A stretch of 64,000 nt of DNA, taken from NCBI GenBank assembly GCA_038204855.1, contig JBBRCM010000003.1, positions 620 to 64,619 of the forward strand, written 5' to 3'. This DNA is from Chitinophagales bacterium (GTDB lineage Bacteria; Bacteroidota; Bacteroidia; Chitinophagales; Chitinophagaceae). The translations under genes and the position numbers were made by a program. The notes beneath the pieces are model-generated. The model did no database searches, was not told the origin of the DNA, and saw only the letters and a list, made by a program, of their open reading frames with translations. Below, in pieces: positions 20,404-23,756 of this stretch; position 1 is the stretch's first letter, and every line of letters begins with the position of its first letter.

Positions 20404-21423
20404 CTATACCGCCGAAGTAAATTGTTTTAAAAAGCGTACATCATTCTCGCTAAAAAGCCTGAGGTCTTTTATCTGGTATTTTAACATGGTAATTCTTTCG
20501 ATACCCATGCCAAATGCAAAGCCGGTGTATTTATTGCTGTCGATTCCGCAATTATCCAGCACATTGGGATGCACCATACCGCAGCCTAAAATTTCGACCC
20601 ATCCGGTCTTTTTGCATACGCTGCACCCTTCGCCGCCGCATATTAAACAACTAATATCCATTTCGGCACTTGGCTCAGTAAAAGGAAAATAACTCGGGCG
20701 AAAACGCACCTTAAAATCTTTACCAAACATTTCCTGCACAAAGAAATAAAGCGTGTGCTTCAGGTCGGCAAAAGAAACATTTTCGGCAATGTACAAACCC
20801 TCTACTTGGTGAAAAAAGCAATGCGCCCTTGCACTGATCGTTTCATTACGGTACACACGGCCCGGGCAAATAATGCGGATGGGCAATTTGCCTTTCTGCA
20901 TTTCACGAACCTGCACACTGCTGGTATGCGTGCGCAAAAGCCAATCGGGATTTTGAGAAATATAAAACGTGTCCTGCATATCCCTTGCAGGATGATTTTC
21001 TGGTAAATTAAGAGCGGTAAAATTATGGAAGTCGTCTTCAATCTCGGGGCCTTCTGCAACTGCAAAACCAAGCCTTTGAAAAATAGATATGATCTTATTT
21101 TTTACAATACTGATAGGATGGCGGCTGCCGAGGGGTAAAAAGTCTGCCGGTAAAGAGAGATCAATTTCGTAAGTGGTGAGTGGTGAGTGGTGAGAAGCTG
21201 CTTTAAGCTCCTCGTATTTTGCTTCTGTAAAAAGCTTAAACTCGTTTAGCAATTGGCCGGCTTCTTTCTTGTTTTCGGCAGCTACATTTTTCATTTCGCC
21301 CATGATGGCTTTTACCAAACCTTTGGAGCCCAGGTATTTAATGCGAAAGGCTTCAGCATCGGTATCATTAAACGCTGCGATTTCTGTTCTTAAAGCTTCC
21401 ATTTCTTGTAACAACTGTTCCAT
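20404..21423 (-). CDS. pheS: phenylalanine--tRNA ligase alpha subunit
   Basis: HPARDMQDTF, LRTHTS, FPFTEPSAE, GFAFGMGIER. Confidence 0.98.
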   Translation of the reverse strand: MEQLLQEMEALRTEIAAFNDTDAEAFRIKYLGSKGLVKAIMGEMKNVAAENKKEAGQLLNEFKLFTEAKYEELKAASHHSPLTTYEIDLSLPADFLPLGSRHPISIVKNKIISIFQRLGFAVAEGPEIEDDFHNFTALNLPENHPARDMQDTFYISQNPDWLLRTHTSSVQVREMQKGKLPIRIICPGRVYRNETISARAHCFFHQVEGLYIAENVSFADLKHTLYFFVQEMFGKDFKVRFRPSYFPFTEPSAEMDISCLICGGEGCSVCKKTGWVEILGCGMVHPNVLDNCGIDSNKYTGFAFGMGIERITMLKYQIKDLRLFSENDVRFLKQFTSAV

Positions 21424-21528
21424 AAGGGCAAATATAATACATGGATTCGGAAGGAAATCTAAAAAGCCATTTGTTATGAAAATTGTTTTAAATGTATTAA
21501 ATTCACTTTGCTAAAAGTTGTACACATA

Positions 21529-22242
21529 ATGGTACATGTAAAATTATTTATTTCTTATGCTCATAAAGATGATGAAAGCTTTAATGTGTTCAGGCCGGCC
21601 ATTAAAGAAGCACTTAACAAGTCAGATTTTTTTATTTTTGATGCATGGGAAGACTCCGGAATACCGGTTGGTACAAACTGGCATGCTTATATTCAAAAGA
21701 AATTAAACAATTGTAAAATCGCAATACTCTGTGTGTCTGATAATTTTTTTGCATCCAGATATATATTAGAATCGGAGTTTAAGGAGCTATTAAACCGCTA
21801 TAACAATGTTTTAATATTACCCGTTTACTTTGGCAATTGTAAAATTGATACCTGGCAAGACCTGGCTGCTATTCAGTTCTTTAAGCCAAAAGGCGCCGAA
21901 TATGGACTACCCGACATTCCGAATTTTTCCTTTTCGGATCTGAGTAAGGCCGAAATTCTGTCGCAGGCAAGTAAAAGTATAGCGATAAGTAAATATTGCG
22001 AGAATTTATCACTACACCTGCAACAGGCATACATTGAAGCAAAGATTGGTGATGACGAACCAAAAAAACTCTCAGACAAAATTGTTACCTATGTAATTAT
22101 AGCTGCAATAATCGGGGCACTTGTTTTTACTTTTTATTCGCTTTTGTTTGAAAAAGAAACCAAACAATTTAACAGCATAATGGGCAGCGGTGTTTTCTTT
22201 GGCAGTTTTGCAGCTTTTACTTACAATAAAAAATCTCATTAA
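21529..22242 (+). CDS. TIR domain protein with two C-terminal TM helices
   Basis: LFISYAHKD, W-x-D-x2-I-x2-G-x2-W, AILCVSDNFFASRYILESEF, ILPVYF; two hydrophobic segments at the C-terminus. Confidence 0.85.
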   Translation: MVHVKLFISYAHKDDESFNVFRPAIKEALNKSDFFIFDAWEDSGIPVGTNWHAYIQKKLNNCKIAILCVSDNFFASRYILESEFKELLNRYNNVLILPVYFGNCKIDTWQDLAAIQFFKPKGAEYGLPDIPNFSFSDLSKAEILSQASKSIAISKYCENLSLHLQQAYIEAKIGDDEPKKLSDKIVTYVIIAAIIGALVFTFYSLLFEKETKQFNSIMGSGVFFGSFAAFTYNKKSH

Positions 22243-22253
22243 ACTTAACTTGG

Positions 22254-22823
22254 ATGAATAAAAATATAATAATATTAATTTTTTTAAGCCTGATGGTTGG
22301 TTCTGCTGTTTATTTAGGTGTTGAATTTAAAAGATTAGAGCAGCAAAGAAAAGAGTTGGCTGTGGAAAAAGCAGATGTTGTAAGGCAAAGAAATAAGATT
22401 GATTCGTTAAAGAATATCTTTCAATCGCAGAATGAAATTGCTCAAAAAATTGTAAGTGAAATAAAACCAAAAAATTTGCCCGACAGTTTACACAGGTTAA
22501 TTTCAAGGTACGAAAATTCGGAAGCTGTAATACAGAAAAGTATTAGTGATCCCGAGAAAAATGCCTTAGCTTTTGAAAGAGCCGGTTTTGAAGGTATTAT
22601 AAATGACAATTTTGCTGTCGCGAGGAGCCAGTTTAATAATGCAGAAAAAGCATTTCCATCCTTCCATATGTCTTACGAAATATCCAAATTATTAAAAAGC
22701 AGGCAAGCCGATTTTGGTGACAAAGAAAAGGAAGAAAATATAAAAATACAGATCTACAAAAAATATAGCTGGAAAGCACCTAAAGATTTAATATCCCGGC
22801 TTGGCAATCAAATAACTCCCTAG
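22254..22823 (+). CDS. membrane-anchored coiled-coil/helical protein (TIR partner), hypothetical
   Basis: N-terminal TM, coiled coil and helical C-terminus; 11 bp after the TIR gene. Confidence 0.75.
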   Translation: MNKNIIILIFLSLMVGSAVYLGVEFKRLEQQRKELAVEKADVVRQRNKIDSLKNIFQSQNEIAQKIVSEIKPKNLPDSLHRLISRYENSEAVIQKSISDPEKNALAFERAGFEGIINDNFAVARSQFNNAEKAFPSFHMSYEISKLLKSRQADFGDKEKEENIKIQIYKKYSWKAPKDLISRLGNQITP

Positions 22824-22919
22824 TTTAACAGAGGCTTTTACTAACCAATGTTAATTTTTAAGCCGTAACAGAATTACAGCAGAATTATACTTATTTTTAT
22901 CCTCTAAATTTTATAAAAA

Positions 22920-23705
22920 ATGGACTTATTTAAATCAGGAAATCCTGCCTTATCTGAAAAAAGATTTAAGGATACAGTACTTGACCAGGTGGTAACGCAT
23001 GAAAATGCCATGACGGTGAACGGCACCATGCAAAAATTTGGTATATTATTTTTAATGACGCTGGCCACTGCTTACTATAGCTGGAAAGAAGCTGTGGAAG
23101 GTGGTAATGCCATGACTCTTGTGTTGGTGGGTGCTTTTGGCGGCCTGGGCGTGGCGTTAGTGATTGCTTTTAAAAAACAATGGAGCCCGTTTTTAGCGCC
23201 TGTTTATGCATTGCTTGAAGGCTTGTTCGTTGGTGCCGTTTCTGCCTATTTTGAATATGCTGTTGCCAGCAGGCAGGGCGGTTATTCCGGCGGATATTCG
23301 GGTATTGTTATGCAGGCTGTGGGACTAACCTTTTCGGTTGTTGTTGCGATGTACCTGTTGTATAAATTTCAAATTATAAAAGTTACGCAGCGCTTTAAAT
23401 CAGTCATCATGATTGCCACAGCAGGTATCGCTATATTTTACCTTGTTTGCTGGGGATTGTCGGCTTTCAGCGTAAATGCCCCTTCATTTGTTTTTCAAAG
23501 CACTCCGCTTGGAATTGGATTTTCAGTTTTTGTGGTTGCACTAGCTGCGCTGAATTTACTGCTGGATTTTGACATGATAGAGAAAGGTGTAGAAATGGGT
23601 GCACCCAAATACATGGAATGGTACGGAGCTTTTGGTTTACTGGTAACCATTGTTTGGTTATACCTGGAAATATTAAGATTATTGGCCAAACTTAATAAGA
23701 GATAA
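22920..23705 (+). CDS. Bax inhibitor-1/YccA family membrane protein
   Basis: SGNP...MTVNGT; LLLDFDMIEKG; WYGAFGLLVTIVWLYLEILRLL. Confidence 0.9.
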   Translation: MDLFKSGNPALSEKRFKDTVLDQVVTHENAMTVNGTMQKFGILFLMTLATAYYSWKEAVEGGNAMTLVLVGAFGGLGVALVIAFKKQWSPFLAPVYALLEGLFVGAVSAYFEYAVASRQGGYSGGYSGIVMQAVGLTFSVVVAMYLLYKFQIIKVTQRFKSVIMIATAGIAIFYLVCWGLSAFSVNAPSFVFQSTPLGIGFSVFVVALAALNLLLDFDMIEKGVEMGAPKYMEWYGAFGLLVTIVWLYLEILRLLAKLNKR

Positions 23706-23720
23706 GCATATTTTTTAAGG

Positions 23721-23756
23721 AAAAGGCCGTTCAAAATTTTTGAACGGCCTTTTTTT
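23721..23756. terminator. bidirectional terminator
   Basis: AAAAGGCCGTTCAAAA/TTTTGAACGGCCTTTT between convergent genes. Confidence 0.8.

Follow-up and report, generated by a model that had tools for sequence, protein, structure and literature searches.

A rare two-gene cassette of a TIR protein and a membrane protein in Ferruginibacter-like Chitinophagaceae, a candidate inner-membrane conflict module

A two-gene cassette between pheS and BaxI_1

What could be the function of two small, tightly linked genes, one for a TIR protein with a membrane hairpin and the other for a single-pass membrane protein of no named family, that are inserted between housekeeping genes of a soil bacterium? This question is raised by a locus of a soil Chitinophagaceae bacterium (contig JBBRCM010000003.1, assembly GCA_038204855.1), which was analysed within a stretch of 64,000 nucleotides, here called the window; all positions refer to this stretch. 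An initial annotation, made from the sequence alone, had described a compact, AT-rich operon between pheS and a BI-1/YccA-type gene. This description was upheld by the open reading frames (ORFs), by the GC content of the cassette (0.327, versus 0.427 for pheS and 0.420 for the downstream gene) and by the match of the downstream gene to Pfam BaxI_1 (PF12811, E 3e-75). The two genes, referred to as gene 1 and gene 2, are co-oriented and separated by 11 bp (Table 1). In our preferred explanation, which we judge to stand about the same chance of being right as of being wrong, the 1.5-kb cassette is an accessory two-protein inner-membrane TIR conflict module. By analogy with described systems, such a module would most likely be of the anti-phage or abortive-infection type.

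Both genes are genuine and not chance ORFs, because they are conserved as a pair in other genomes. In all eight loci that keep the upstream DNA, a gene for a TIR protein with two transmembrane (TM) helices (TIR-2TM) was found directly 5′ of gene 2, the spacing ranging from an 11-bp gap to a 4-bp overlap. These linked loci are G000, G023 (=L015/L016), G077 (=L020), G902 (=L017), L018 and L088, while at L019 the contig ends inside gene 2 and the upstream gene is out of view. Pairwise identities between loci change in step for the two proteins, with values of 73% and 69% for L017 versus L018, and of 46% and 48% for G000 versus G023. Among the best-conserved parts of both proteins are the TM helix of gene 2 and the second TM helix (TM2) of gene 1. 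Both ORFs are intact at every locus, and many residues are invariant at an overall identity of 41-48%. The linkage is thus obligate in every locus found, in agreement with the earlier proposal that the two genes form one unit.

Gene 1 combines a TIR domain with a membrane hairpin

Gene 1 had been annotated as an N-terminal TIR domain followed by two C-terminal TM helices, and both elements were recovered. The Pfam TIR_2 profile (PF13676) matched residues 7-119 with an E-value of 2.5e-12 and 47.8 bits, well above the cut-off of 28. The AlphaFold2 (AF2) model, with a predicted local distance difference test (pLDDT) score of 78 overall and of 75-94 across the TIR part, contains the TM hairpin and was matched by Foldseek to RPPT-TIR, TcpB/BtpA, PdTIR, SPARTA TIR-APAZ, RPP1 and L6 at E-values of 1e-4 to 1e-3. 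The predicted fold is that of a flavodoxin-like TIR domain.

To judge the catalytic state of this domain, we relied on an alignment of 20 full-length relatives that are 38-91% identical. Residues F7, S9, Y10, A11, H12 and D14 and, further downstream, S76, Y78, I79 and E83 were invariant in this alignment. The initial annotation had located a Glu at the catalytic position within SRYILESE. This holds for E83, the second Glu of SRYILESEF, but not for E81, the first Glu of that motif, which is unconserved. Profile alignments with solved TIRs placed E83 opposite the catalytic Glu of AbTIR ('NYELD') and opposite that of the plant TIR AT1G72930 ('CLD-EL'), allowing for a one-residue insertion. Judged by these residues, the TIR domain of gene 1 looks catalytically competent, which makes the protein a candidate NADase.

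The TIR domain is followed by a conserved segment with the motif QFFKPxG, a long helix, a linker of highly variable length and two hydrophobic helices. TM1 (residues 185-207) is strongly hydrophobic. TM2 (residues 217-232) is rich in Gly, Ser and Phe and has a weaker hydropathy, yet it is helical in the model, conserved (FFGS..F..NKK) and followed by NKK. Lys residues are present at both ends of the hairpin, which fits a topology with both ends in the cytoplasm. When the non-TIR half of gene 1 was used alone as a query, it was only ever found behind this TIR domain and with no other N-terminal domain.

Gene 2 belongs to an unnamed and probably periplasmic family

For gene 2, the AF2 model agrees with the earlier description as an N-terminal TM helix, a coiled coil and a helical domain. 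The model, which was based on a 100-sequence alignment, has a pLDDT of 92.6 and consists of a single helix that spans the TM segment and the coiled coil (residues 3-69), a second stalk helix and a compact five-helix domain (residues 100-187). Foldseek retrieved nothing significant from the PDB for this protein, and no family of Pfam or NCBIfam matched it. In a wide VIA-align search, the best Z-score was 7.8 and only TPR hairpins or long coiled coils were returned. Helices 1 and 2 of the domain are similar to a TPR hairpin at a Z-score of about 7, which is the noise level for helical proteins. Leads from the ESM Atlas were likewise all TPR, with scores of 0.87-0.89 (under 0.9). No TPR profile of Pfam matched gene 2 itself; in the relative P0042, which has four tandem copies of the domain, one copy exceeded the TPR_1 and TPR_2 cut-offs at its first two helices. 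A bacterial Death-like domain was also considered for the head of gene 2 and set aside: the structure-search lists contained no Death-fold chain, though no direct Death-domain profile search was made.

An exhaustive profile search of 1.84 billion representatives with gene 2 yielded 541 proteins at E ≤ 1e-3, including 196 at E ≤ 1e-10 and 26 at E ≤ 1e-30. These 541 relatives share a C-terminal stretch of ~90 residues, marked by the motifs E..GF, AEK..P.FH..YEI..LL and KYSWKAP, and most of them are ~200-250 amino acids long with one N-terminal TM helix. The C-terminal domain of gene 2 thus founds a wider, unnamed family of 541 representative clusters. Several members point to the side of the membrane on which the domain resides. 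P0090 combines a probable Sec signal peptide with a C-terminal PG_binding_1 domain, and L084 has a probable lipoprotein signal. In P0152, an nSTAND1 domain is followed by a strong TM helix (504-522), WD40 repeats and then the domain, and in P0163 three TM helices precede it. Because these relatives and P0042 carry export signals, PG_binding_1 or a preceding TM helix, the domain of gene 2 is probably extracytoplasmic, in the periplasm. The envelope-facing C-terminal domain that had been suggested for gene 2 is consistent with these relatives, and the net-charge difference across the TM helix weakly favours an N-in orientation. In another relative, P0061, the domain occurs with a trypsin-like peptidase. 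A ~90-amino-acid domain that is fused to peptidase, STAND-NTPase and peptidoglycan-binding modules merits a family description.

The surroundings of three distant relatives of gene 2 are of note. In L082:5472-6983 (G779:C29), the gene-2-like gene is convergent with a lysozyme/chitinase-like gene encoding Glyco_hydro_19 and PG_binding_1, a context that hints at a cell-wall connection for the domain family. In L053:5995-7437 (G114:C92), a distant gene-2-like protein is encoded 64 bp 3′ of a gene for a secreted Endonuclease_NS, and by eye the region has the look of a defence or mobile island, with patatin-like (GGGS motif), MazG-like and DUF2075-like ORFs. In L081:144-8465 (G835:C242), again by eye, the gene-2-like protein has a type I restriction-modification hsdS/hsdR pair on one side and a resolvase plus transposase on the other, which would make this a mobile or defence region that lacks a TIR gene.

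Comparison of the cassette with known TIR systems

As noted before, no gene for SIR2/SLOG, a CD-NTase, a cyclase or a prokaryotic Argonaute (pAgo) is present within several kb on either side of the cassette. Because these defining partner genes were sought and not found, the cassette is outside Thoeris, CBASS, Pycsar and SPARTA. The claim that it represents an undescribed system was sustained in part: PADLOC assigns no system to the cassette, but systems that consist of a TIR, a 2TM element and a protein with one TM helix (1TM) are known (PMC9122126), and a three-gene relative is present in the same genus.

The closest known layout is that of a system from a hotspot of the P2-like phage AC1, composed of a TIR protein and two transmembrane proteins. 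In E. coli, this system confers protection from lambda, LF82_P8 and P2, and the authors suggested that the membrane proteins are activated by the TIR protein (Rousset et al. 2022, PMC9122126). Other operons of a TIR and a TM protein that were validated as anti-phage systems are E. coli TIR-I to IX (PMC11350192) and Thoeris II, V and VII (bioRxiv 10.64898/2025.12.03.692087). Both the AC1 system and the cassette are small operons that encode a TIR, a membrane element of two helices and a membrane protein with a single TM helix. However, the AC1 system comprises three genes, whereas the cassette has two, with the TIR and the 2TM element fused in one polypeptide. Moreover, the AC1 system resides in an E. 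coli prophage hotspot, whereas the cassette is located in the chromosome of Bacteroidota between core genes. The comparison concerns the layouts as described. The cassette reads, by analogy, as a two-gene version of the AC1-type layout in which the active TIR itself would be membrane-anchored. We take the AC1-type system to be the one listed in DefenseFinder as Rst_2TM_1TM_TIR. A search of the literature on TIR-TM, TM-TIR and TIR-2TM revealed no paper on bacterial proteins.

The relative in the same genus is a three-gene cluster encoding a TIR-like-2TM protein (A), a 1TM protein (B) and a soluble TIR (C), which was found in G001 (L009, G001:C7), G027 (L006, G027:C76) and G032 (L008:38-1941, G032:C253). 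In gene A, a linker joins a TIR_2 domain to a 2TM hairpin at the C-terminus, and the protein is degenerate in that the catalytic Glu is absent. Gene B encodes a protein of ~260 amino acids that belongs to no family. Gene C has kept the catalytic Glu and matches the PADLOC ThsB model PDLC00420 at 1e-49; no match to it was detected by tblastn in the phage collection described below. Gene B was matched in 6 of the 200 other genomes of the genus that were searched, and G027 carries the cluster too. Matches to gene B in G894, G932, G952 and G978 suggest that these genomes also carry it. As in the cassette, the 1TM gene follows the TIR-2TM gene, the cluster is similarly rare, and a weak alignment of gene A to gene 1 extends over 155 columns and takes in the hairpin (hhalign E 1.7e-4, probability 50%). 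In contrast, gene B shows no relationship to gene 2 (hhalign probability 0.4%), the cluster is found outside the slot 5′ of BaxI_1, and its membrane TIR lacks the Glu, which is instead carried by a separate soluble TIR. With its 2TM element, 1TM protein and TIR, the cluster parallels the layout of the phage AC1 system.

Thoeris systems with membrane effectors (II, ThsC Macro-TM; V, ThsF DUF2270; VII, ThsH SLATT) resemble the cassette in that they pair a TIR gene with a gene for a small membrane protein, and the TIR of the cassette has the catalytic Glu and a weak similarity to ThsB models. On the other hand, ThsB is soluble while the TIR of the cassette is predicted to be membrane-anchored, and Thoeris effectors possess a cytoplasmic signal-binding domain while gene 2 has none that is recognisable and its domain is probably periplasmic. 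None of the Thoeris effector domains (SIR2-SLOG, Macro-TM, caspase-like, DUF2270, DUF6650, SLATT and others) matched gene 2 in PADLOC, Pfam or NCBIfam. As to known defence genes in the neighbourhood, a criterion used for Thoeris, all nine loci were seen on inspection, with no enrichment statistic, to lie between housekeeping genes.

It is conceivable, though improbable in our assessment, that the cassette is a Thoeris-like pair in which the membrane TIR makes a signal derived from ADP-ribose (ADPR) and gene 2 is the effector, its cytoplasmic TPR-like domain binding the signal and its TM helix and coiled coil disrupting the membrane. Such a pair would be in line with the weak ThsB-model matches of the TIR, with the slightly higher number of Lys and Arg residues on the C-terminal side of the gene 2 TM helix and with the nature of many Thoeris effectors, which are likewise small and span the membrane or consist of uncharacterised domains. 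In ThsI, a TPR domain was proposed to perceive cyclic ADPR (bioRxiv 10.64898/2025.12.03.692087). However, the relatives of gene 2 with a Sec or lipoprotein signal, PG_binding_1 or a preceding TM helix argue for an extracytoplasmic domain. In addition, known ThsB proteins are soluble, gene 2 has no match to a known signal-binding domain and the cassette has no defence-island context.

Further parallels concern parts of the architecture. Animal Toll-like and IL-1 receptors provide an analogy, since in these a cytoplasmic TIR domain is coupled across the membrane to an extracytoplasmic module, as the cassette would couple its TIR to a helical-repeat module. The cassette would split such a receptor into two proteins and has a TIR with an enzyme-type Glu; it is without a leucine-rich repeat or immunoglobulin ectodomain, and there is no evidence of common descent of the architecture. 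Gene 2 alone is comparable to CpoB/YbgF, with a periplasmic coiled-coil stalk and a small helical or TPR head (the YbgF TPR was among the weak fold matches), and to Rz-type i-spanins, with an N-in TM helix and a periplasmic coiled coil. In PHROG, a weak Rz-like spanin match (phrog_739, E 1.2e-4) was found over the TM helix and coiled coil of gene 2, which reflects the shared layout and nothing more. No holin, endolysin or o-spanin gene is located near the cassette, and gene 2 showed neither a significant sequence or fold match to CpoB/YbgF or Rz nor a Tol-Pal context. The cassette is distinctive in three respects: an active-looking TIR fused to a 2TM element, a partner from an unnamed and probably periplasmic family, and a position in a core-gene slot.

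A model for the action of the cassette

In the inner-membrane conflict module that we favour, the TIR domain of gene 1 would be located in the cytoplasm and held to the membrane by the C-terminal 2TM hairpin. Gene 2 would be translated in tight linkage and would cross the membrane once, the N-terminus facing the cytoplasm and the stalk and TPR-like domain most likely extending into the periplasm. The conserved TM helices may hold the two proteins together in a complex whose oligomeric state would be altered by a trigger. Either gene 2 would respond to an event at the envelope, or the TIR would respond to a phage cue in the cytoplasm. As a result, the TIR domains would self-associate and cleave NAD+, and/or the clustered TM helices would damage the membrane.

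Two versions of this model appear about equally likely. In the outside-in version, which corresponds to the idea of the initial annotation, the probably periplasmic head of gene 2 would sense an envelope event and switch on the TIR NADase. In the inside-out version, the TIR would be the trigger, and the clustered 2TM hairpins together with gene 2 would damage the membrane; this version is suggested by the proposal made for AC1 (PMC9122126) and by the TM effectors of Thoeris II, V and VII (bioRxiv 10.64898/2025.12.03.692087). The invariance of E83 suggests that catalysis matters under either version. A more specific form of the outside-in version is a split Toll-like receptor, in which the head of gene 2 detects an envelope event and the paired TM helices switch on the TIR NADase. 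The cue would then be phage adsorption or penetration, or cell-wall damage. This receptor is a tentative proposal that we regard as rather unlikely. A complex prediction for gene 1 and gene 2 with alignments gave a score of 0.00 and hence no verdict, neither for nor against binding.

The bacterial TIR immune systems known to us have soluble TIRs that sense phage inside the cell. If the model is correct, a membrane-anchored TIR with a periplasm-facing partner would extend TIR signalling to the cell envelope, and the cassette would offer a simple two-gene model for coupling TIR activation across a membrane.

The cassette is rare and is exchanged in a variable slot

Few species of the genus have the pair, which was present in 4 of 201 genomes. 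Among 400 further genomes of the family, two distant matches and no close relative were found, and a scan of metagenomes contributed just two more loci, the close L088 and the distant L089. At each of the nine loci, the cassette is positioned directly 5′ of BaxI_1 and on the same strand. BaxI_1 itself is a near-core gene, being present in 52 of 61 genomes of the genus. The slot 5′ of it (window 21424-22919; L022-L050) is empty in some species, where it measures ~100 bp, holds a gene for a ~285-amino-acid membrane-anchored Polysacc_deac_1 protein in many and the TIR pair in few. Upstream, the slot is bordered by pheS or by a korA-like gene, the latter named by eye from its N-terminal sequence. 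The genomes with the pair are dispersed over a BaxI_1 tree, whose well-supported branches require the pair to have been gained or lost at least 3 times. Such presence/absence polymorphism is also seen between sisters: G077, which has the pair, and G005, which does not, differ by a clean swap of about 1.5 kb versus 36 bp, and the sequence just 5′ of BaxI_1 is retained in both.

A recent event was detected by comparison of the window with the metagenome contig L088, which has the same four-gene order. A sliding mismatch profile delimited a tract of ~99% identity that starts within the 5′ end of pheS, near position 21240, and runs to the end of gene 2, near 22800, while the flanks differ by ~8-16% on both sides. 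In agreement with this, the synonymous divergence (dS) between the window and L088 was 0.021 for gene 1 and 0.028 for gene 2, versus 0.49 for BaxI_1. Since the nearly identical tract is set within such diverged flanks, the cassette has recently moved between diverged lineages by homologous recombination, and it did so without BaxI_1. Small cassettes can thus move between species by recombination at core-gene flanks, without mobile-element genes. A 12-nt direct repeat near the ends of the tract (21307 and 22833) was judged to be due to chance, with its left copy inside pheS.

The constant position of the cassette raises the possibility of an envelope-homeostasis or stress-signalling module that is functionally tied to BaxI_1 and not immune. 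In its favour, the cassette directly precedes BaxI_1 at nine loci in two upstream contexts (pheS and korA-like), the first terminator-like site downstream of the cassette comes only after BaxI_1, cell-wall domains are associated with relatives of gene 2, and the alternative cargo of the slot is the envelope enzyme Polysacc_deac_1. However, BaxI_1 is a core gene (52/61 genomes) while the cassette is found in 4/201, the exchanged tract ends before BaxI_1, the sequence just 5′ of BaxI_1 is kept with or without the cassette, and the distant gene-2-like genes have no BaxI_1 neighbour. We therefore attach little likelihood to a module of this kind. Likewise, BaxI_1 was rejected as an unlikely third member of the module, being a core gene outside the exchanged tract whose upstream sequence is kept without the cassette. 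Least probable of all, and in our view very unlikely, is a selfish or addiction pair (a toxic TIR-2TM protein with a protective partner), or a functionless module that persists by recombinational spread: the patchy distribution, the recent transfer, the tight two-gene linkage and raw nonsynonymous differences that equal or exceed the synonymous ones in the recent comparison would suit it, but both ORFs are intact everywhere with many residues invariant at 41-48% identity, no antitoxin-like DNA-binding or neutralising domain is present, and the substitutions are too few for relaxed selection to be demonstrated.

Several observations weigh against the conflict module that we prefer. The surroundings of the cassette (pheS, lipoprotein genes, BaxI_1 and ars genes) are outside any defence island, no transposase, integrase or other mobile-element gene was found near it, and the other cargo of the slot is a polysaccharide deacetylase and no defence gene. 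Tblastn searches at E ≤ 1e-3 gave no match for gene 1 or gene 2 in a phage collection of 50,697 records, and none for gene 2, which was queried alone, in a plasmid collection. PADLOC contains no family that matches gene 2, and for gene 1 it returned only weak matches to TIR models, namely ThsB1 (E 2.9e-9), PDC-S66, SpbK and SAVED-TIR (E 0.0028); in NCBIfam, the Thoeris type III model was matched at E 0.13. The positive-inside bias at the TM helix of gene 2 is ambiguous, with slightly more Lys and Arg residues on the C-terminal side. The ratio of nonsynonymous to synonymous divergence (dN/dS) within the cassette is ~0.4, a value that derives from only 8-9 substitutions per gene. Lastly, the distant relatives of the gene 2 domain (L053, L081-L084 and L089) have no TIR neighbour, and the pairing with a TIR is thus restricted to this clade of Ferruginibacter-like Chitinophagaceae.

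Features of the locus

The features of the cassette and its neighbours are listed in Table 1. For gene 1, an alternative TTG start is present at position 21508, and its homologs begin at the ATG.

Table 1. Coordinates of the cassette, its domains and its neighbours in the window (res, residues)
Feature	Position	Strand	Basis or remark
pheS	20404-21423	-	
Recombination tract, ~99% identical to metagenome contig L088	21240..22800	.	Sliding mismatch profile, dS
pheS/gene 1 intergenic region, presumed promoter region of the cassette	21424..21528	+	Inside exchanged tract
Gene 1, TIR-2TM protein, 237 aa	21529..22242	+	ORF call, TIR_2 profile, alignment, AF2 model
TIR_2 domain, res 1-125	21529..21903	+	Pfam TIR_2 match; Foldseek matches to TcpB/BtpA, PdTIR, SPARTA TIR-APAZ, plant TIRs
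Codon of E83 (GAG), candidate catalytic Glu	21775..21777	+	Invariant in 20 sequences; codon checked
Family-specific conserved post-TIR segment QFFKPxG...F.F..L, res 116-140	21874..21948	+	Invariant alignment columns
C-terminal membrane hairpin: TM1 res 185-207, 9-residue loop, TM2 res 217-232	22081..22224	+	
Gene 2, 1TM/coiled-coil/TPR-like-domain protein, 189 aa	22254..22823	+	
Gene 2 TM helix, res 4-22	22263..22319	+	M1, N4, I5, I7, L11 and M14 invariant in TIR-linked members
Gene 2 coiled-coil/helical stalk, res 23-96	22320..22541	+	Least conserved part
Gene 2 C-terminal ~90-aa helical domain: TPR-like hairpin and three helices	22542..22820	+	FHxxYEI, KYSWKAP
BaxI_1-family membrane protein, core gene	22920..23705	+	Constant downstream neighbour, outside exchanged tract
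First terminator-like hairpin 3′ of the cassette, after BaxI_1	23718..23756	+	

BaxI_1 and arsC converge on the terminator-like hairpin, which has a strong 18-bp stem with T-runs on either side and probably acts as a terminator in both directions. Four more ORFs with a TIR_2 domain were found elsewhere in G000, the genome to which the window belongs (C8:4993, C15:39934, C69:4279 and C2:52141), in open frames of 129-430 amino acids.

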